Source of the DNA: Candidatus Moraniibacteriota bacterium
GTDB lineage: Bacteria > Patescibacteriota > Minisyncoccia > Moranbacterales > GCA-2747515
DNA: 44,924 bases
Direction of reading: 5' to 3'
NCBI GenBank assembly: GCA_030592425.1
Contig: JAUVJK010000002.1
Span: forward strand, 1 to 44,924
Below, one piece after another: positions 588 to 15,644 of this stretch. The translations under genes and the position numbers were made by a program. Position 1 is the stretch's first letter; each line of letters opens with the position of its first letter. The notes under the pieces were generated by a model. The model was not told the DNA's origin. It saw only the letters and a program-made list of their open reading frames with translations, and did no database searches.

Positions 588-773
588 CATACAGCTACAT
601 GAAAGATATTGACGTTCGCTTCTATTCACTGTATCTTTGATATAAAGTTTGCATTACAAGTTATTAGGCAGGCATGCTTAGCTCCCGCCAATGGGAAAGG
701 CGGGCAGGTTGTGGTCAAGGAGAATGATATCGATTTAATAACAGATTAGTTTTAAAATAAGTAGTTATATTAT

Positions 774-859: not shown

Positions 860-899
860 GCCGAGGTAAACTCCGCCTAGTGGTGGATGATTAGCAATA
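860..899 (+). pseudogene. Decayed 5' portion of a tRNA-Phe gene
   Basis: GCCGAGGTA (860-868) is identical to nt 1-9 of the intact tRNA-Phe 66 nt downstream. It is followed by ..CTC..AGTGGT.GA..AGCAA, which matches D-arm blocks with indels. Confidence 0.55.
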
Positions 900-909
900 T
901 AACCTTCAA

Positions 910-1007
910 CAATTTCTTGTCCTAAGCCGAGGTAGCTCAGTGGTAGAGCAAAGGACTGAAAATCCTTGTGTCGAGAGTTCAATTCTCTCCCTCGGCACAA
1001 GAAATTG
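910..1007. repeat. 11-bp perfect inverted repeat bracketing the intact tRNA-Phe
   Basis: CAATTTCTTGT (910-920) is the reverse complement of ACAAGAAATTG (997-1007). The right arm starts at the discriminator base. Confidence 0.8.
926..997 (+). tRNA. trnF: tRNA-Phe (anticodon GAA)
   Basis: Acceptor GCCGAGG/CCTCGGC, D arm GCTC-AGTGGTA-GAGC, anticodon arm AAGGA-CTGAAAA-TCCTT, T arm GAGAG-TTCAATT-CTCTC. Confidence 0.9.
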
Positions 1008-1032
1008 TGACGGGAAATTCATTCCCTCGGCA
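1007..1032 (+). pseudogene. Decayed T-arm and 3' acceptor piece of a tRNA-Phe gene
   Basis: GTGACGGGAAATTCATTCCCTCGGCA aligns with GTCGAGAGTTCAATTCTCTCCCTCGGCA of the intact gene. The terminal 10-mer TCCCTCGGCA is identical. Confidence 0.55.
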
Positions 1033-1066
1033 TAACATTGTATAAAAAGAGAATTCCAATTTATCT

Positions 1067-1432
1067 GGGACCGTAGCTCAGCGGTTAGAGCGACCGGCTC
1101 GACAAGTTCATTCTAAATTGTGTTAAGAATTATGTAATTCAGTATGAATGTTCTTAGCAGGGCTGCCTGAAAAGTAATTTTCTGGTGAATATCTGTCAAA
1201 TTCGGGGAAATCTAAAATTTGATCGCATGATCAGATCAAGACAATCCCGAGCCAATCCATATATCCTACTGATGTGTGGCAGGTGTAGAGACTAGACGGC
1301 AGACACCCTTAATTCGTTCATCAAATGAAGGGTGAAGGGATAGTCCAGCTCACAAATTTGAAAAAAGTTGCGAAAGCAATAGTGAGACGCATAACCGGTT
1401 GGTCGCAGGTTCAAATCCTGCCGGTCCCACCA
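1067..1432 (+). tRNA. Intron-containing tRNA with CAT anticodon (elongator Met or lysidine-dependent Ile2); exons 1067-1099 and 1390-1432
   Basis: The joined exons give GGGACCGTAGCTCAGCGGTTAGAGCGACCGGCT|CATAACCGGTTGGTCGCAGGTTCAAATCCTGCCGGTCCCACCA, a perfect cloverleaf with loop CTCATAA. G1-C72 and the absence of a GGG/CCC anticodon stem argue against an initiator. CCA is encoded. Confidence 0.85.
1100..1389 (+). ncRNA. Group I intron (IC3-like) in the tRNA anticodon loop, no ORF
   Basis: Follows U1099 and ends in G1389. Core blocks are GTCAAATTCGGGGAAATCTAA (1195-1215), CCCGAGCCAATCC (1246-1258) and GGTGTAGAGACTAGACGGCA (1282-1301). GNRA-capped hairpin at 1166-1185. A GGCT guide at 1161-1164 can pair with exon GGCU. 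Confidence 0.85.
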
Positions 1433-1486
1433 CAATCGCTCTCGAGCGACGTGGCGAGCCACAAATAGCACATCCATCTCGTTAAT

Positions 1487-1511
1487 GCAGGCGCGCCTGC
1501 CTAAATTTTTT
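1487..1511 (+). terminator. Terminator-like GC palindrome plus T-run inside the tRNA cluster
   Basis: GCAGGCG/CGCCTGC palindrome followed by CTAAATTTTTT. Confidence 0.35.
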
Positions 1512-1535
1512 ATTGAAGATAAAAAACTTTGGCAG

Positions 1536-1607
1536 GCGAGTGTCGTATAGTGGTTATTACACCACCTTGCCAAGGTAGAAACGGCGGTTCGATTCCGCTC
1601 ACTCGCT
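1536..1607 (+). tRNA. trnG: tRNA-Gly (anticodon GCC)
   Basis: Acceptor GCGAGTG/CACTCGC, anticodon loop TTGCCAA, T arm GGCGG-TTCGATT-CCGCT, discriminator T. One C:A mismatch in the anticodon stem and one T:T in the D stem. Confidence 0.8.
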
Positions 1608-2983: not shown

Positions 2984-3613
2984 ATGAATAAGAATTTTAT
3001 CATTGGCGGTGTAATTATCTTTGTATTATTTGTTATTGGACTGATCTGGCTGGCAAGTCAGGATGTAAATCAGACAAGCGAAGAAGCTGATGTGCTTAGA
3101 AATACATTTGTACAATACGCGCAAGAACTCAGTCTTGACACAGAGAAATTCCTCTCAGATTACAATAGTGCGGATATTACAGCGCGTGTAGAGGCAGATA
3201 CGAATGTTGCAAATACCCTTGGTGTCAATGCAACGCCAACGTTAATGATTGATGACAAGAAACTACAATATAATACATATGATGACATTAAAAAGCTTAT
3301 TGATGCAAAAATTGCGCAAGATTCAATTCAAGAGATTACAGACCCAGCCCATACGAAGGGTTCAGATACTCCAAAGGTACTTATAGTTGAATTTAGTGAT
3401 TTTCAGTGTCCAGCATGCGCTACCTTTACACCTTTTGTTTCACAGATCATTGCTGATTATCCAAATGACGTTGCTGTTCATTATCGTCATTTCCCCCTTC
3501 CGATGCACCCTTTTGCTGATGAAGCAGCGCAAGCAGCTGAAGCTGCAGCAGAACAAGGAAAATTTTGGGAGATGCACGATCTCCTCTTTGACCGCCAAAA
3601 CGATTGGAGTTAG
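2984..3613 (+). CDS. DsbA/BdbD-like thiol:disulfide oxidoreductase with circularly permuted module order
   Basis: N-terminal TM helix. CxxC site in VLIVEFSDFQCPACATF. The ..LGVNATPTLMIDDKKL.. (cis-Pro loop) block precedes the CxxC block instead of following it. Confidence 0.75.
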   Translation: MNKNFIIGGVIIFVLFVIGLIWLASQDVNQTSEEADVLRNTFVQYAQELSLDTEKFLSDYNSADITARVEADTNVANTLGVNATPTLMIDDKKLQYNTYDDIKKLIDAKIAQDSIQEITDPAHTKGSDTPKVLIVEFSDFQCPACATFTPFVSQIIADYPNDVAVHYRHFPLPMHPFADEAAQAAEAAAEQGKFWEMHDLLFDRQNDWS

Positions 3614-3928: not shown

Positions 3929-4465
3929 ATGCGGATATCATTAATACTATTCCTCCTAGCTGTGGTTGTGATCTTCTGGGTTCAAACAGCTAGTGCTAGC
4001 GCAAATGAAAAAAACTACCAGTACGATAAAACTATATTACTCACAAAAAATACACAGATCCCTTCCTATTTTGCTTATGCGCAATATGAAGTCTCAGAAA
4101 AAACACTCCTTACAAAAATAATCCCCCAAGATACATATCTCCAGAAAGAAGAAATTAAAGAAGAAGCTGTATCTACTCAAAATTCATTTACAATTAACGC
4201 ATCCGCTTATACAGCATCTGCTGATGAATGTGGCAATAGTAAAGGTATCACTGCTTCTGGTGAACTAGTTCGTGCCAATTATACACTCGCATGTCCTCCA
4301 CAATATGCATTTGGCACACAAATCGAAATTGAAGGATATGGGACATTCACATGTAAAGATCGTGGTGGCGCAATAAAAAATAACCACTTTGATATTTATA
4401 TGGAAACAAAGGCCGAAGCATTTGCATTTGGACGACGCATGCTCACAGCATACGTTGTTAGCTAG
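3929..4465 (+). CDS. Secreted 3D-domain (MltA/YabE-type) cell-wall-binding or lytic protein
   Basis: Signal peptide MRISLILFLLAVVVIFWVQTASA. C-terminal ASAYTASADECGNSKGITASGE...CKDRGGAIKNNHFDIY matches the 3D domain pattern. Confidence 0.8.
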   Translation: MRISLILFLLAVVVIFWVQTASASANEKNYQYDKTILLTKNTQIPSYFAYAQYEVSEKTLLTKIIPQDTYLQKEEIKEEAVSTQNSFTINASAYTASADECGNSKGITASGELVRANYTLACPPQYAFGTQIEIEGYGTFTCKDRGGAIKNNHFDIYMETKAEAFAFGRRMLTAYVVS

Positions 4466-4504: not shown

Positions 4505-4589
4505 TGCCGCGGGTGGGACTCGAACCCACACGACGTTGTGCGTCAAGAGATTTTAAGTCTCTCGTGTCTACCAGTTCCACCACCGCGGC
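4505..4589 (-). tRNA. trnL: tRNA-Leu (anticodon TAA)
   Basis: Minus strand GCCGCGGTGGTGGAACTGGTAGACACGAGAGACTTAAAATCTCT...GTGGGTTCGAGTCCCACCCGCGGCA, with a long variable arm. Confidence 0.9.
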
Positions 4590-4613
4590 ATGTATTGCGT
4601 AAAATGAATATTG

Positions 4614-4684
4614 AGATCCGGAGCGGATTTGAACCGCTGTACAGGGTTTTGCAGACCCTTGCCTAACCGCTCGGCCACCGGACC
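4614..4684 (-). tRNA. trnC: tRNA-Cys (anticodon GCA)
   Basis: Minus strand GGTCCGGTGGCCGAGCGGTTAGGCAAGGGTCTGCAAAACCCTGTACAGCGGTTCAAATCCGCTCCGGATCT. The discriminator is U73, as expected for Cys. Confidence 0.9.
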
Positions 4685-4689
4685 ATAAT

Positions 4690-4935
4690 TCAATACTTCA
4701 ATCTTTTTAATACCATTTCTTTTTGCTGAGAATTCTTTTTTATTGCCATCTCTCTTGAGCGTGCCTGTGCTAATGTCGTATATGCTTCATAATATAAAAG
4801 ATCAAAAGGCTTATAGGGCTTTGTTGACTTTACCGTACCAGCGATATGCATACTGAATCGCTGTTGTAAATCTGATGTTGATCCAACATAAACCCAATTA
4901 CTACTTCTACTTTTTAGAAAATATACGTAATACAT
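4690..4935 (-). CDS. Stand-alone GIY-YIG domain protein (UPF0213/YhbQ-like), 81 aa
   Basis: MYYVYFLKS..NWVYVGSTSDLQQRFSMH..LLYYE..REMAIKK fits the GIY / YIG / R / E pattern. I prefer ATG 4935 (GGGAGG 13 nt upstream) over the track start at 4992, which lies inside tRNA-like sequence. The TGA stop is 5 nt before tRNA-Cys. Confidence 0.8.
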   Translation of the reverse strand: MYYVYFLKSRSSNWVYVGSTSDLQQRFSMHIAGTVKSTKPYKPFDLLYYEAYTTLAQARSREMAIKKNSQQKEMVLKRLKY

Positions 4936-4970
4936 ATAATTTGTTTTGCCTCCCTGTGGGAGATCACCCG

Positions 4971-5058
4971 AAGGGTGACAGACCCTTGACACGTCGTTCG
5001 CGAATCACGTGTATTGCCTAGCCGCTCCTCCCTACGGGAGACAGGCGGCCACCGGACC
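4971..5058 (-). pseudogene. tRNA-Cys-like 5' half with two hairpin insertions and no T arm
   Basis: The minus strand keeps GGTCCGGTGGCCG (13/13), AGCGGCTAGGCAA (12/13) and AGGGT-CTGTC-ACCCT in tRNA-Cys order. These are interrupted by CCTGTCTCCCGTAGGGAGG and ACACGTGATTCGCGAACGACGTGT. Confidence 0.7.
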
Positions 5059-6049: not shown

Positions 6050-7714
6050 ATGGAAGATCGAGCCAAGAAGCTCGATTTTCGTGTTCCTGAACAACTTATG
6101 GTGAAAACTATGAAACTTCAAAAAATAGCACTCCTCTCCGTCTATCATAAAGACGGTATCGTCGAGTTTGCCCAAAGACTGATCACGCTCGGCTGGCGCA
6201 TCATTTCATCTGGTGGCACTGCCAAAACACTATCTGAAGCTGGCGTATCCGTTGAGGACGTTGCCAAACTCACAGGTCGTAAGGCAATTCTTGGGCACCG
6301 TGTTGTCACACTGGACCCAGCAATTCATGGTGGACTTCTGGCAACAGAAGATATGCGTATAGAGCTCAAAGAACTCGGATTCCCCTGGATTGACCTTGTC
6401 TGTGTAGATCTTTATCCACTCAAGGAGGCCATTGTAAATCCAGAAGCGACCACAATGTCTGTTATTGATCAGACTGACATCGGCGGTCCAACAATGTTGC
6501 GTTCTGCAGCAAAAGGGCGTCGCATTGTTATCGCTGACCCTGGTGATCGTGCAGAAGTACTCACATGGATCGAGAATGGCCAACCAGATAAAGAGTCCAT
6601 GCTCACAAAGCTAGCAGCAAAAGCTGAGGGCATCATCGCTGATTACTGTCTCGCTTCTGCTCGTTTCCACAGCAAAGGAAAAATTGATGGCATGGTCGGC
6701 ACACAAGTGCGTGAATGCAAATATGGTGAAAACGGATGGCAAAAACCAGCCGGACTATATACAACACAGACAAATGATTCACTAGCAGTCGATCAATTCT
6801 GTCTCATTACAAAGAACAAAGTTCCGGGATTTGTAAATGAATGTGATCATGACCGACTACTTCAGACGATCACACATATCGCAGCAGCATTTGATCTAAA
6901 CTATGGAACTGTTCCGTATATCGCAGTTGTCGTAAAGCATGGCAATGCCTGCGGTGCAGGCATTGGCGAATCACCGATTGATGCCCTAAAAGGGATGATT
7001 GATGGGGACCCAATCGCAATATTTGGCGGCGTAATGATCACAAACTTTCCGATTGATAATACTGAGCTTGATTGTGTGCGGACTTACAAATCCACAGAGA
7101 GCAAGCGCTTTCTTTCTGGAATCATCGCACCACAAATTTATGATGACGCCTCAGAAGAACTTGCAAAGAGCAACTGTTATCTCCAAGAAGTTACAGAGCT
7201 CGAAAACTTAACGCAGGAAAGCCTCCTAACAGGAGCAATGCTACGACCAGTACGCGGAGGCTTCCTCAAGCAACAAGCCTTCACATTCGTACTGAATCTC
7301 AGTTCTGAACTAAACAGTGTCACAACTGGATTTGCACTAACTTCGGCACAGCGACAAGATATTCTCCTTGCGTGGGCAATTGGCTCAACAAGTACAAGTA
7401 ATACCATCACGCTCGTACGACACGGTATCCTTATCGGTAACGGCACCGGACAACAGGATCGAGTGAAAGCTGCTGAACTCAGTGTTGAAAGGGCACGGAG
7501 AGGAGCTCACAAGATCGAAGGTTCTGTTGCCTATTCTGATAGTTTCTTCCCATTTCCAGATGGCGTTGAGGTCCTTACCAAGGCTGGCGTAAAGGCAATC
7601 TTTGCATCAAGTGGCTCCAGGGGGGATGAAGCAGTTGTAGAACACTGTGTAAATGCTGGTGTTACGCTATGCATGTTACCTGACACAGTCTGTCGCGGAT
7701 TCTACGGACACTAA
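6050..7714 (+). CDS. purH: Bifunctional AICAR formyltransferase / IMP cyclohydrolase
   Basis: KIALLSVYHKDGIVEFAQRL..SSGGTAKTL..DIGGPTMLRSAAK (MGS-like/IMPCH domain), VVVKHGNACG and DSFFPFPDG (AICARFT domain). The true start may be an internal Met (MVKT or MKLQK, 6098-6110). Confidence 0.85.
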   Translation: MEDRAKKLDFRVPEQLMVKTMKLQKIALLSVYHKDGIVEFAQRLITLGWRIISSGGTAKTLSEAGVSVEDVAKLTGRKAILGHRVVTLDPAIHGGLLATEDMRIELKELGFPWIDLVCVDLYPLKEAIVNPEATTMSVIDQTDIGGPTMLRSAAKGRRIVIADPGDRAEVLTWIENGQPDKESMLTKLAAKAEGIIADYCLASARFHSKGKIDGMVGTQVRECKYGENGWQKPAGLYTTQTNDSLAVDQFCLITKNKVPGFVNECDHDRLLQTITHIAAAFDLNYGTVPYIAVVVKHGNACGAGIGESPIDALKGMIDGDPIAIFGGVMITNFPIDNTELDCVRTYKSTESKRFLSGIIAPQIYDDASEELAKSNCYLQEVTELENLTQESLLTGAMLRPVRGGFLKQQAFTFVLNLSSELNSVTTGFALTSAQRQDILLAWAIGSTSTSNTITLVRHGILIGNGTGQQDRVKAAELSVERARRGAHKIEGSVAYSDSFFPFPDGVEVLTKAGVKAIFASSGSRGDEAVVEHCVNAGVTLCMLPDTVCRGFYGH

Positions 7715-13194: not shown

Positions 13195-13460
13195 ATATCA
13201 TGGCGCAACAGAAGTTACTTACAACGTATTAATGCGATTCTAGCGCATAATGACATTCCTGACAACATTAAATAGAAAATTTATTGCAAAATATTATTGA
13301 GACCCTAGGATCTTACTTATTTTATGTTTCATATTATGCCATATTTTTCTATATTTGCCAAGTTATGTGAGCTGCATTCTAACCCTAATCTTAATTTCTT
13401 TCCATAAAAAGACATTGTCCCTGTATAATTGTTTAGCGTCAAAACATAACAATTAATACG

Positions 13461-13645
13461 ATGAAGAGATTTCTCACAAACATATTACACCAGATTAGGT
13501 ATCAGGGATAGCTATATTCAAAAGATCAAAATTCTTACAGAAAACTATCGCCAAGATGATTGGTGTGTCACCAAGTACAATCTCACAAATTTTGTTTCAC
13601 GTGAAACAAAATTTTATACTTTTTCTTAAATCTTATATTTTTTAA
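13461..13645 (+). pseudogene. Frameshifted remnant of an XRE-family helix-turn-helix gene
   Basis: MKRFLTNILHQIRYQG* (13461-13511), then in the next frame ..KRSKFLQKTIAKMIGVSPSTISQI.. up to TAA 13643-13645. The QKTIAKMIGVSPSTISQI segment matches the XRE HTH pattern. Confidence 0.4.
13587..13614. repeat. 28-bp perfect palindrome AAATTTTGTTTCAC|GTGAAACAAAATTT
   Basis: Checked base by base. The core TTGTTTCACGTGAAACAA is identical to the site at 14009-14026. Confidence 0.9.
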
Positions 13646-14008
13646 ATGCTAAAAATTTAACCAGTACTATATTTAGGTAAGCTAATTTGTCCAGAAATAT
13701 TCTATCCAAATAAATGAAAAAATAACTACAACATTCCTTCTTACCACCCCAAAGATGAGATCTCTAAACAATTATGAAAAATAAGAAAATAAGCTATGAA
13801 AAAATACGCCGCTATTAATACGTCATTATTCAAAATGCTCTTACAGCATTAGGTAGAGAACACTTGCGGTAAAAGCGCATCACTATAAATAAGATAGTTC
13901 TTAGGAATAATCCTAATTCTATCATACAAAAGAACTGTCTCATCAACAGAAAGTATTTTTAGTGAGTAAAATTTAGGTATTCACAGAGATGGCATATAAT
14001 AAATTTTA

Positions 14009-14026
14009 TTGTTTCACGTGAAACAA
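14009..14026. repeat. 18-bp perfect palindrome TTGTTTCAC|GTGAAACAA (second copy)
   Basis: Identical 18-mer, 422 bp from the first copy, in the same gene desert. Confidence 0.9.
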
Positions 14027-14639
14027 ATTAGTTACAACTTTTCTAACCACTAATAAGACAACTTTTTCAAACTCCACAAGACAGTTTTATTCATCGACGA
14101 AAACTAATGAAATAAGCTGATCAAAATTATATAGTGTGATAACTAAGTAAATATTACAACCAAATATCTAAAAATCATGTAGAAAATGCTAATAACTCGC
14201 AAGAAGTATTAAATGAGGATGAATTCTAGTCTTTTTCAACATATTTTCTTATTACTGTCAAGTCTTTGATGTAATTACACAAAAATCACTGACTATTGAT
14301 ATACTTATATATTGCCTATAACTCTCACATACAGTCTACATCGGATTAGGGTGTTAAGAACTAGCAAATAAGAACCAAAAGGATGATAATAGTAATTATT
14401 TCAATATAATTAGTTAAAATACACTTCTAATTGATAATTTAATACAATTAGAATCTCTTATTGTATAAACTATTTCAGGCTGATTTACTCAACATTATAG
14501 TAAGAATTTGCGCATATTTAAAAAAACTGTTTTGAAATAGGGGAGTATAGATCATTAACTTCCAAGATCACTAAAGTTATTAACAGAAATAACTATTCCT
14601 TTTCCAAAATTTATGGTATGATTACATCATAGAAAAAAT

Positions 14640-15644
14640 ATGCAAGCACAAAACAAATACAGTTTAGTGGAATTACTACCAGCGGTCACAATTTTTGTGG
14701 TACTGCTTTTAATTTCCCTCTCAATGCATACGCTTGCTGAGACCCCTACAGATAGTGCTAGTATTTTCGAGGATAGAGATCAAGACGGCCTCAGCGATGA
14801 GGAAGAAAAAGCACTTGGCACTGATCCGCTCCTAAAAGATTCTGATGGTGACAGTTATTCAGATGGTGTCGAAGTAGAAAGCGGCTATGATCCATTGATC
14901 CCAGCACCAAATGATAGACCAGCAGTTAATGGCATGGGAGGGGAAGACCCTGAGCTATTAGAGCTAGAAGATAATGAGGATACAGAAGTTTCAGCAACAG
15001 AAGAGTTTACAGAGAACTTTAGTGATTATCTCGAGGAAAGTATTGCCTCTGGAAAAGAAGATATTTCTGTTGACGAGATTACGGCCATCGCAAATGCATC
15101 CGTAAGTGAGCCTCTCACTTTCGGACAACTTCCTGACATCTCAATGGATGATATTCTTATCAAAGAACAGAACTACAACAACCTCTCAGATGATGAACAC
15201 CTAGAGAAAAAACGCCAAGATGCAATTGAATATTTCACAGGTAGTGCATTTATTCTTTCATCACATCTACCTGTAACGCCTGGCGGATCCACAGAGCTCA
15301 TGGACGTCATGGATTATGTCATGTCCAATATGAATACGATTGGGACATCGGCACCATCCCCTTATCTTATAGAACTCGCAGATACCAGTGAGAAAGCATT
15401 AGATGACTTAAAATCTGTCGAAGTCCCACAAGAATATCTAGATGTCCACATCAGAGGATTACAATTGGCACGCTATGGCTCCATATTAGGTCAAGATATA
15501 GAAATGTCTGAAACAGACCCACTTTCGACAATCAGTACACTTTCTCAGATTCAAGGACTCTTCTCACTCTCTGGAGAATATGTAAATGAAATGACAACAT
15601 TACTTAACGATATAAAGATTCTGGAAGAAGAGATCGATCTATAA
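14640..15644 (+). CDS. Acidic secreted or membrane-anchored protein with TSP3-like Ca-binding repeats and a pilin-like N-terminus
   Basis: N-terminus KYSLVELLPAVTIFVVLLLISL (Glu at +5 relative to Y). DRDQDGLSDEEEKALGTDP..DSDGDSYSDGVEVESGYDP repeats. Very Asp/Glu-rich. Confidence 0.7.
   Translation: MQAQNKYSLVELLPAVTIFVVLLLISLSMHTLAETPTDSASIFEDRDQDGLSDEEEKALGTDPLLKDSDGDSYSDGVEVESGYDPLIPAPNDRPAVNGMGGEDPELLELEDNEDTEVSATEEFTENFSDYLEESIASGKEDISVDEITAIANASVSEPLTFGQLPDISMDDILIKEQNYNNLSDDEHLEKKRQDAIEYFTGSAFILSSHLPVTPGGSTELMDVMDYVMSNMNTIGTSAPSPYLIELADTSEKALDDLKSVEVPQEYLDVHIRGLQLARYGSILGQDIEMSETDPLSTISTLSQIQGLFSLSGEYVNEMTTLLNDIKILEEEIDL

Follow-up and report, generated by a model that had tools for sequence, protein, structure and literature searches.

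In the 44,924-nucleotide stretch of DNA studied here (the window; GenBank contig JAUVJK010000002.1 of a Candidatus Moraniibacteriota bacterium), an intact tRNA-Phe(GAA) gene lies inside the remains of a second tRNA-Phe. A 5' stub of this outer copy (860-920) precedes the intact gene, a 3' stub (1005-1032) follows it, and the breakpoints of both stubs coincide on the tetranucleotide TTGT (tRNA positions 41-44). On balance, we regard the Phe segment as DNA-level debris of double-strand-break repair in a resident tRNA-Phe and not as a working RNA element, with a GIY-YIG nuclease as the likely cause. Relatives carrying an identical tRNA-Phe have an empty site, and comparable remnants of tRNA genes recur in the lineage, where they are associated with GC-rich hairpins and small GIY-YIG open reading frames (ORFs).

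Anatomy of the Phe locus

The inner gene scores above the gathering threshold of the Rfam tRNA model RF00005 (76.5 against 29 bits). The 5' stub starts 11 nt past the tRNA-Val gene, which is near the compact Val-Phe spacing found in relatives (3-27 nt), and its first nine nucleotides, GCCGAGGTA, equal nt 1-9 of the intact gene. The original prediction, made from the letters of the window, had reported this match, and both the sequence and a repeat finder confirm it. The upstream piece consists, in this order, of tRNA positions 1-9, AAC, a GC hairpin and a decayed stretch (AGCA..; ..TCAACAATTTCTTGT) ending in CTTGT. The 'D-arm blocks' that had been placed after the 9-mer are weak, and the GC hairpin (872-887) stands there instead. 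Local alignment of 860-920 to positions 1-44 of the inner gene gave a score of 26, and 29 of 2000 shuffles scored as high.

For the 3' flank, aligned to inner positions 33-72, the score was 34, which none of 2000 shuffles attained. Following the trailer CAAGAAA, the stub reads TTGTGAC-GGGA-AATTC-ATTCC-CTCGGC-A, with GTTC deleted from the T loop; set against the inner gene, it is TTGTGACGGGA----AATTCATTCCCTCGGCA. The last 10 nt of the gene, TCCCTCGGCA, are found again without change (1023-1032 equals 988-997), as had been predicted, and the match widens to 17 of 20 nt between 1016-1035 and 981-1000. A unit of ~39 nt, delimited by TTGT, is present twice, head to tail, as segments 965-1008 and 1004-1041 (local score 31; shuffles 13 +/- 2.6, maximum 25). 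Since this duplication includes the trailer, which is not part of the tRNA, the event occurred in DNA and not in RNA. Tandem Repeats Finder returned nothing on 840-1080, a two-copy, indel-bearing duplication of 39 nt being below its threshold, and alignment of the Phe-Met spacers did not discriminate which copy is ancestral.

The outer pieces represent a second tRNA-Phe interrupted in the region of anticodon stem and variable loop with the working gene inside, as originally proposed, and relatives display the same architecture at every stage. The anticodon arm of the outer copy had been described as missing; a case can be made that both junctions retain decayed copies of it (..TCAACAATTTCTTGT upstream, GAAA-TTGT downstream). 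The two acceptor strands of the outer copy form an outer inverted repeat with 11 of 12 positions matching (858-869/1022-1033).

The stubs are dead and non-functional. ARAGORN found an outer tRNA in none of 1475 excision variants of 860-1032, and the Rfam tRNA model, run over 400-1700, gave no match on 860-925 or 998-1066 at E<=10. A lack of tRNA-Phe likeness under a covariance model had been named in advance as evidence against the prediction; formally, this is what the search returned, the model being too insensitive for stubs of 9-30 nt, and the direct alignments stand. The tRNA origin of the stubs is accordingly read from direct alignment to the inner gene. The gene is confined to 926-997, and all else at the locus is scar.

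The window is part of a bacterial chromosome with rplS, purine-synthesis genes and ftsH, and its relatives are metagenome-assembled genomes of Candidatus Moraniibacteriota and Pacebacteria from the Candidate Phyla Radiation (CPR). The tRNA operon downstream of rplS comprises Leu(GAG) 505-588, Val(TAC) 774-848, Phe 926-997, tRNA(CAU) 1067-1429 and Gly(GCC) 1536-1608, with a promoter-like site at 459-487 and terminators at 424-443 and 1614-1640. From this layout, the Phe stubs are co-transcribed spacer. An independent assembly from another sample (L086; related loci carry the letter L and a number) matches the window exactly over 860-1035, which excludes an assembly artefact. The strain-level contigs L086-L090 are 99.8-99.9% identical and show no indel at the Phe locus, so that they offer no informative polymorphism. 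The features are compiled in Table 1.

Table 1. Features of the Phe locus and of neighbouring tRNA loci in the window.
Feature	Position	Strand	Remarks
tRNA-Val(TAC) 5' stub with hairpin CCCGCC-AATGGGAAA-GGCGGG	667-710	+	672-684 equals 774-786 at 12/13; hairpin 685-703
Outer 5' stub: acceptor 5' strand plus U8 A9 of second tRNA-Phe	860-868	+	GCCGAGGTA, 9/9 identical to 926-934
GC hairpin TCCGCC-TAGT-GGTGGA, inserted in 5' stub	872-887	+	Motif CCGCC N3-10 GGYGG at 873-886
Decayed rest of 5' stub, ~tRNA positions 21-44, with indels, ending in CTTGT	888-920	+	Alignment to inner gene
Left arm of inverted repeat (last 12 nt of 5' stub)	909-920	+	Decayed tRNA positions 34-44
CCTAA, 5-nt leader of inner gene	921-925	+	From sequence
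Intact tRNA-Phe(GAA)	926-997	+	Presumably functional; Rfam RF00005 76.5 bits; ARAGORN Phe-GAA
Right arm of inverted repeat	997-1008	+	Discriminator A, trailer CAAGAAA, TTGT starting the 3' stub
Outer 3' stub: tRNA-Phe positions 41-72	1005-1032	+	Variable loop, T arm, acceptor 3' strand, discriminator
Trailer copy TAACATTGT	1033-1041	+	Alignment of 965-1008 with 1004-1041 runs through trailer
tRNA(CAU), split in anticodon loop by ORF-less group I intron	1067-1429	+	Rfam RF00028 83.9 bits at 1142-1370; acceptor halves pair
Intact tRNA-Cys	4684-4613	-	GIY-YIG ORF ends 5 nt before
81-aa GIY-YIG nuclease ORF, catalytic domain only	4690-4935	-	Pfam PF01541, E = 1e-16
tRNA-Cys pseudo-5' half	4941-5058	-	Exact blocks (positions 1-13, 14-26, 26-33, 34-40) with three hairpin inserts between

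Empty sites in related loci

A metagenome scan anchored on rplS yielded 80 related loci. This anchor was used because four of the five loci obtained with an adjacent 401-aa ORF had no tRNA cluster nearby. The gene order rplS-Leu-Val-Phe-Met-Gly is widely conserved in the related loci. Six of them (L007 and L010-L014) carry a tRNA-Phe identical to the inner gene (72/72), without stubs, hairpin or leader-trailer complementarity and with unrelated flanks. In five of the six, the Val-Phe spacer is 16-27 nt long, while L011 has no called tRNA-Val. The Phe-Met spacers measure ~10 nt in L012 and L014 and ~95-106 nt in L010, L011 and L013. A presence/absence polymorphism at a conserved tRNA-Phe target thus exists among close relatives, and the identical tRNA-Phe with an empty site in six of them indicates that the state found in the window is derived.

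Remnants of tRNA genes in the lineage

To a tRNA gene of the related loci, an exact copy of its first nine nucleotides is found within 400 nt upstream in 12 of 211 cases (none in a reversed-sequence control), and an exact copy of its last nine within 400 nt downstream in 19 of 211 (one in the control). Matches of at least 10 nt number 71, compared with 13 in the control. Both a 5' and a 3' copy accompany three tRNAs, namely L005 Leu, L053 Leu and the Phe gene of the window. Typically, the 3' copies start in the T loop, and often they extend 5-15 nt beyond the end of the tRNA; the 5' copies break off in the D loop, the anticodon loop or the variable region.

The window itself holds further cases. 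The original prediction had counted neighbouring tRNA genes with signs of invasion, which is correct and understated: tRNA-Val has a 5' stub, tRNA(CAU) a group I intron and tRNA-Cys a GIY-YIG cassette. The tRNA-Val stub lies ~90 nt upstream of the intact tRNA-Val, with a promoter-like site (609-637) just upstream of the stub. The tRNA(CAU) orthologue is intronless in L005, L010 and L012-L014.

Two side observations concern repeated damage at one gene. In L046 (1311-1588, Pro) and L049 (4378-4671, Val), two successive inserts each end in the same copy of the last 18-19 nt of the tRNA, and this shared end points to repeated events at the same T-loop breakpoint. In L015 (4382-4650), two tandem tRNA-Ile pseudo-units, each a 5' part with leader, precede the intact gene; the distal unit has one hairpin insert more than the proximal one, as if hairpins accumulate with age.

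GC hairpins and GIY-YIG ORFs

The motif CCGCC N3-10 GGYGG occurs at two places in the 45-kb window (685-703 and 873-886; expected 0.11), that is, in the Val stub and in the Phe stub. The hairpin at 685-703 is palindromic and matches the motif on both strands. In the Phe stub the hairpin begins 3 nt past the 9-mer; in the Val stub it abuts the 13-mer. This hairpin also comes after tRNA 5' stubs in L008, L020 and L029 (Val), L035, L044 and L050 (Phe) and L103 (Ser). A covariance model (R1) built only from hairpin-bearing 5' stubs of relatives found the Val stub of the window (E = 1e-4, 23.1 bits).

At the tRNA-Cys locus, a pseudo-5' half, a GIY-YIG ORF and an intact gene follow each other; two of the three hairpin inserts in the pseudo-half have the form CTCCC-NNN-GGGAG. 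This complete form, [pseudo-5' half + hairpins]-[80-100-aa GIY-YIG ORF]-[intact tRNA], is shared by L008, L023 and L049 (Val). The tRNA-Cys design is repeated almost exactly in L103, which has three hairpin inserts, the first being TCCGCC-CAA-GGCGGA. The ORF evolves fast, judging from the strain contigs: four of the 10 single-nucleotide polymorphisms in 5.9 kb are in or beside it, in strains that are 99.8% identical overall, and some strains have a truncated form of 53 aa.

In the rplS-anchored loci, all eight GIY-YIG ORFs are co-oriented inside tRNA clusters. Homologues of the window ORF on unrelated contigs end 3-81 nt upstream of tRNA-Ser or tRNA-Trp in seven of 10 distinct contexts, and pseudo-pieces of that tRNA are nearby in at least five of these seven (L091, L093, L094, L103 and L105). 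A nuclease ORF is within the inserted segment at the tRNA-Cys locus of the window and in L008, L023, L049, L091, L093, L094, L096, L101, L103 and L105. In L091, a GIY-YIG ORF and an inner tRNA-Ser lie between outer halves (GGAAGGG/CCCTTCC) which pair with each other and differ from the inner gene; this arrangement requires a foreign cassette to have been inserted into a resident gene.

tRNA genes nested in cognate tRNA genes

Nesting without an ORF was found as well. In L035 (838-1021, + strand), a complete tRNA-Val(CAC) carries a different tRNA-Val(CAC) in its D loop, flanked by CCCGCCCACCTTT/AAAGGTGAGCGGG; folding predicts one cloverleaf inside another, and the outer tRNA reconstitutes on removal of the insert, unlike the outer Phe of the window. 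A tRNA-Pro(CGG) pair in the same locus (1805-1990, + strand) is built likewise, with a 14-bp inverted repeat and a half-preserved outer gene, and again has no ORF. The inverted repeats of L035 are 10-14 bp long and of the CCCGCCCACC / CCCCGTCACC type. In L044, the same repeat (CCCGCCCACCTTT/AAAGGTGGGCGGG) surrounds a tRNA-Val(TAC) inside a decayed outer gene. At its tRNA-Phe site, L035 has three different tRNA-Phe alleles in layers. The literature searched contained no description of nested intact tRNAs of the L035 type. By comparison with these loci, the Phe locus of the window looks like an old, ORF-less example of a tRNA in its cognate tRNA.

Proposed origin of the Phe locus

We propose that the resident tRNA-Phe would have been broken at TTGT, on the boundary of anticodon stem and variable loop. 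Two routes lead from such a break to the present state. In a single event, the break would have captured a whole copy of tRNA-Phe together with 5 nt of leader and 7 nt of trailer. Alternatively, two events at the same spot would have generated microhomology-mediated partial tandem duplications, one of positions 1-44 and one of positions 41-72 plus trailer. Both routes fit, and the greater decay of the 5' stub slightly favours the second. By either route, only the inner copy would be complete and functional. The outer pieces would subsequently have decayed, by insertion of the GC hairpin, by other indels and by loss of GTTC from the T loop.

The source of the break would likely be a minimal GIY-YIG nuclease (~80-100 aa, catalytic domain only) colonising tRNA genes of the lineage. 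As the cassette leaves or supplies a complete tRNA, its invasion would be tolerated. At the Phe locus, the nuclease ORF would have been lost, or the enzyme would have acted in trans, for example from the tRNA-Cys copy 3.7 kb away; a role of the nuclease at this site is suggested by analogy with the ORF-bearing loci.

Several points weigh against this explanation. No relative was found with the same filled site or with an intermediate stage. No nuclease ORF or recognisable remnant of one is present within 869-925 (57 nt), and the 81-aa nucleases have no DNA-binding domain. Model R1 misses the Phe 5' stub, which is more decayed than the Val stub, at E<=10, so that its membership in the hairpin-bearing class rests on the 9-mer, the hairpin motif and its position. 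The stubs share their acceptor sequence with the inner gene and so give no sign of a foreign origin, unlike the outer pieces in L035 and L091. The 5' stub is also much more decayed than the 3' stub, which fits two events better than one. Finally, the 12-bp inverted repeat around the inner gene (see below) has another sequence than the repeats of the CCCGCCCACC type in L035 and L044, and its perfection (12/12) is not fully explained by chance at the junctions.

A wider and more tentative proposal is that CPR may host an undescribed family of self-compensating 'tRNA-in-tRNA' homing cassettes, in which a minimal GIY-YIG nuclease just upstream of a replacement tRNA, bracketed by short palindromes, inserts into loops of the cognate tRNA gene. 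The Phe locus of the window might then be a decayed, ORF-less member. If such a family exists, its nuclease, having no DNA-binding domain, perhaps recognises a hairpin or cruciform structure of the tDNA. The ORF-less units of inverted repeat, tRNA and inverted repeat in L035 and L044 would represent non-autonomous copies that depend on mobilisation in trans, and the GC hairpins accumulating in the displaced halves would stabilise the element by interrupting the direct repeats. More speculatively still, once RNase P and RNase Z have freed the inner tRNA, an intact outer tRNA could survive in two pieces that the helix of the inverted repeat keeps together.

The inverted repeat and alternative explanations

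The inner gene is bracketed by a perfect inverted repeat, ACAATTTCTTGT (909-920) and ACAAGAAATTGT (997-1008), with 12 of 12 positions paired. The original prediction had given 11 bp for it and had offered a cassette with terminal inverted repeats as one explanation. A tRNA inside its cognate tRNA with an inverted repeat is indeed real in this clade (L035, L044); the 12-mer of the window, however, is not the terminus of a repeated element. At up to one mismatch it has no further occurrence in the window, and two-mismatch matches look unrelated. The search for additional copies, suggested at the outset, returned no exact copy in the other loci and four unrelated one-mismatch matches only. As the terminal inverted repeat of a repeated element or miniature inverted-repeat transposable element, the 12-mer was rejected on the ground of its single occurrence, that is, its two arms.

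These results bear on a first alternative, which we consider unlikely: that the locus is a non-autonomous mobile unit, a tRNA gene bounded by inverted repeats that transposes or homes into a cognate tRNA gene and is mobilised in trans. Two outer tRNAs of L035 (Val-CAC and Pro-CGG), each with an inner tRNA flanked by inverted repeats and with no ORF, would agree with it, as would the recurrence of the same repeat around a different inner tRNA-Val in L044 and the close fit of the perfect 12-bp repeat around the inner gene of the window. This is countered by the singularity of the 12-mer, which is unrelated to the repeats of L035 and L044, by the lack of a transposase and by the make-up of the arms. 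The left one derives from tRNA positions 34-44; the right one is composed of discriminator, trailer and TTGT. From their sequence, the arms appear to be junction sequence rather than element ends.

A second alternative, to which we attach a low probability, is a functional RNA: the inverted repeat and the outer acceptor-like pairing would form a leader-trailer helix directing or regulating the processing of pre-tRNA-Phe. In the minimum-free-energy fold of 850-1045, a long leader-trailer stem carries the cloverleaf (z = -6.4, attained by none of 200 shuffles), the repeat is perfect and the tRNA cluster looks like one operon. The z-score is, however, inflated by the tRNA itself and by the duplicated acceptor strands, and the flanks are demonstrably decayed gene copies. 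Moreover, the six relatives with an identical tRNA-Phe show no such pairing and have unrelated flanks, which makes the processing stem considered in the original prediction, had it been conserved, improbable. Leader-trailer inverted repeats of at least 12 nt accompany only three of 203 tRNAs (one of 999 mismatched leader/trailer pairs), and all three are in scarred loci. We interpret the repeat as having arisen incidentally from the junction sequences and as dispensable for processing. It is predicted to extend the acceptor stem in the co-transcribed precursor, and possibly its perfection was sharpened by quasi-palindrome template switching or by weak selection on the precursor fold (z = -6.4).

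Even less probable is the scenario, also raised earlier, of a tRNA-Phe triplicated in tandem whose first and third copies then decayed reciprocally. There are three partial or complete copies in the same orientation, and tandem pseudo-units exist elsewhere (for example at tRNA-Ile in L015), but tandem tRNA-Phe genes are absent from all 28 related loci in which a tRNA-Phe was called, the spacers measure no more than 5 and 7 nt, and the outer copies are complementary halves meeting at one breakpoint (TTGT) instead of randomly decayed full genes. The least credible alternative is an attachment-site scar, left by an integrase-type island that entered at the tRNA-Phe 3' end and later departed: direct repeats of the 3' part of a tRNA are a classic integration product (PMC9897764; 10.1101/2022.07.05.498093), and the present repeat spans the variable loop to beyond the 3' end, but it lies 7 nt from the gene with no recombinase island between, carries the trailer, is bounded by microhomology and is accompanied by a 5' stub. 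In the larger inserts of relatives, reading of the translations, for which no domain search was run, recognised no integrase-like ORF, and HNH-like or other endonuclease-like ORFs were seen instead.

Relation to known systems

In the literature searched, neither nesting of GIY-YIG ORFs and tRNA genes nor hairpin-studded pseudo-halves are described for CPR, an absence that does not prove novelty; a survey of insertions in CPR rRNA makes no mention of tRNA. Recurrent colonisation of bacterial tRNA genes by minimal nucleases is apparently undescribed. If break repair is the correct explanation, the Phe scar would be a variant of homing-endonuclease biology.

The closest parallels come from phages and organelles. 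The phage protein SegB is ~220 aa long and includes a DNA-binding region. It is a GIY-YIG nuclease that cuts inside tRNA genes at RAWTSGAAC, drives tandem segmental amplification with microhomology at the junctions and is associated with tRNA genes across phages (PMC13096335); its homing in the T4 tRNA cluster has been described (PMC2330249). In our own reading, the reverse complement of its site, GTTCSAWTY, seems to resemble the T-loop coding sequence. Like the CPR ORFs, SegB of T4/T6-like phages is encoded by a GIY-YIG nuclease gene embedded among tRNA genes and statistically associated with them. By analogy, cutting in tRNA genes and repair that spreads the gene or yields tandem duplications with junction microhomology may be counted as shared with the CPR case. 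Unlike SegB, the CPR ORFs are chromosomal, encode 80-100 aa and contain only the catalytic domain. Their cassettes lie inside the cognate tRNA gene, between its pseudo-halves, whereas hairpin inserts in pseudo-halves and tRNA-in-tRNA nesting are not described for SegB, and the Phe locus has no nuclease ORF.

Free-standing GIY-YIG ORFs of organelles insert together with a replacement part of the gene and leave the original as a pseudo-fragment, as for Allomyces atp6 and its double-hairpin elements. The self-compensating insertion, with a partial duplicate beside an intact gene, is common to both systems, and in both the borders carry GC-rich hairpins or double hairpins (compare L008, L029 and L096). 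The organellar targets are mitochondrial protein-coding genes, whereas here bacterial chromosomal tRNA genes are affected and a complete tRNA can compensate.

Archaeal split and multi-intron tRNAs offer a formal resemblance. In Nanoarchaeum, halves with complementary flanks occur, and bulge-helix-bulge introns are located at D-loop or anticodon positions (reviewed in PMC3978253). The succession of 5' half, complementary sequence, its partner and 3' half is the same, and inserts in tRNA loops are shared. However, the outer tRNA-Phe cannot be reconstituted, the interior is a complete tRNA of the same type, the host is bacterial, and no bulge-helix-bulge motif or splicing machinery is shown. The fragments of van der Gulik et al. 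(10.1101/2022.07.05.498093) are likewise non-canonical partial tRNA genes beside a canonical one and an annotation nuisance; there, attachment-site duplications bound integrase islands of kilobase size, whereas here fragments lie 5-7 nt off on both sides and there is no integrase. Group I introns in anticodon loops of bacterial tRNAs (RF00028) are selfish insertions too, one being in the same operon (1142-1370), and in relatives they sometimes have a homing endonuclease. Such an intron self-splices as RNA; the Phe scar lacks a ribozyme, and restoration of the gene takes place in the DNA.

Usually, tRNA genes are seen as passive landing pads of integrases; here they look like direct targets of tiny GIY-YIG nucleases, the damage being neutralised by a complete tRNA regenerated or delivered each time. 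With this, the connection recently demonstrated in phages between SegB-type nucleases and the amplification of tRNA genes would reach bacterial chromosomes as well. In CPR/Patescibacteria, it would explain bloated tRNA operons, steady horizontal replacement of tRNA alleles (such as the three tRNA-Phe alleles in L035) and annotation traps, namely stubs and nested genes overlooked by tRNA finders. Nucleases of 81 aa that appear specific for tRNA genes would be objects for experiments. The message of the Phe locus itself is modest: it is a dead scar, and its interest is as a pointer to a recurrent process.

Further observations

ARAGORN misses the split tRNA(CAU) gene. In L011 and L018, this gene is also split, is ~700 nt long and holds an ORF of 121 aa on the opposite strand, with HNH-like Cys/His motifs.

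At 1482-1540 (+ strand), the window has the palindrome GCAGGCGCGCCTGC together with a 20-bp hairpin (1494-1513/1519-1538), and these extend into the first few nucleotides of tRNA-Gly. At the matching spot between tRNA-Met and tRNA-Gly, L005 has an inserted GIY-YIG ORF.

A conserved module of ~65 nt with two covarying hairpins (GGGGTCGGGAAA..TTTCCCG..GGAGGAAAG..GAAAACC-GTG-GGTTTTC) separates tRNA genes of six types from a duplicate of their 3'-terminal 16-24 nt, and is often preceded by an inverted copy of the T loop or 3' strand of the tRNA. It occurs in L005 (4240-4300 and 3945-4010, - strand), L011 (~2320-2400), L025 (~4215-4300 and ~7110-7190), L031 (~4050-4125), L039 (~4010-4090), L052 (~4020-4100) and L063 (~4570-4660). 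The module has no Rfam match and is not present in the window.

In L054, a longer repeat (..TTTCCGCCTACGGCGGAAGCCGTGAAATCCCATAATTCCCCCCAGCG..) is found in inverted orientation at 1937-1949 and 3435-3447, ~1.5 kb apart, and it also occurs downstream of tRNA-Leu in L070 (1669-1681). The copies may be the ends of another mobile element.

Elsewhere in the window, a 1.45-kb AT-rich stretch (13195-14640; ~35% GC) upstream of tRNA-Arg(CCT) has no ORF of at least 50 aa. It contains two perfect copies of the 16-bp palindrome TGTTTCACGTGAAACA (13593-13608 and 14010-14025), for which 0.01 would be expected.

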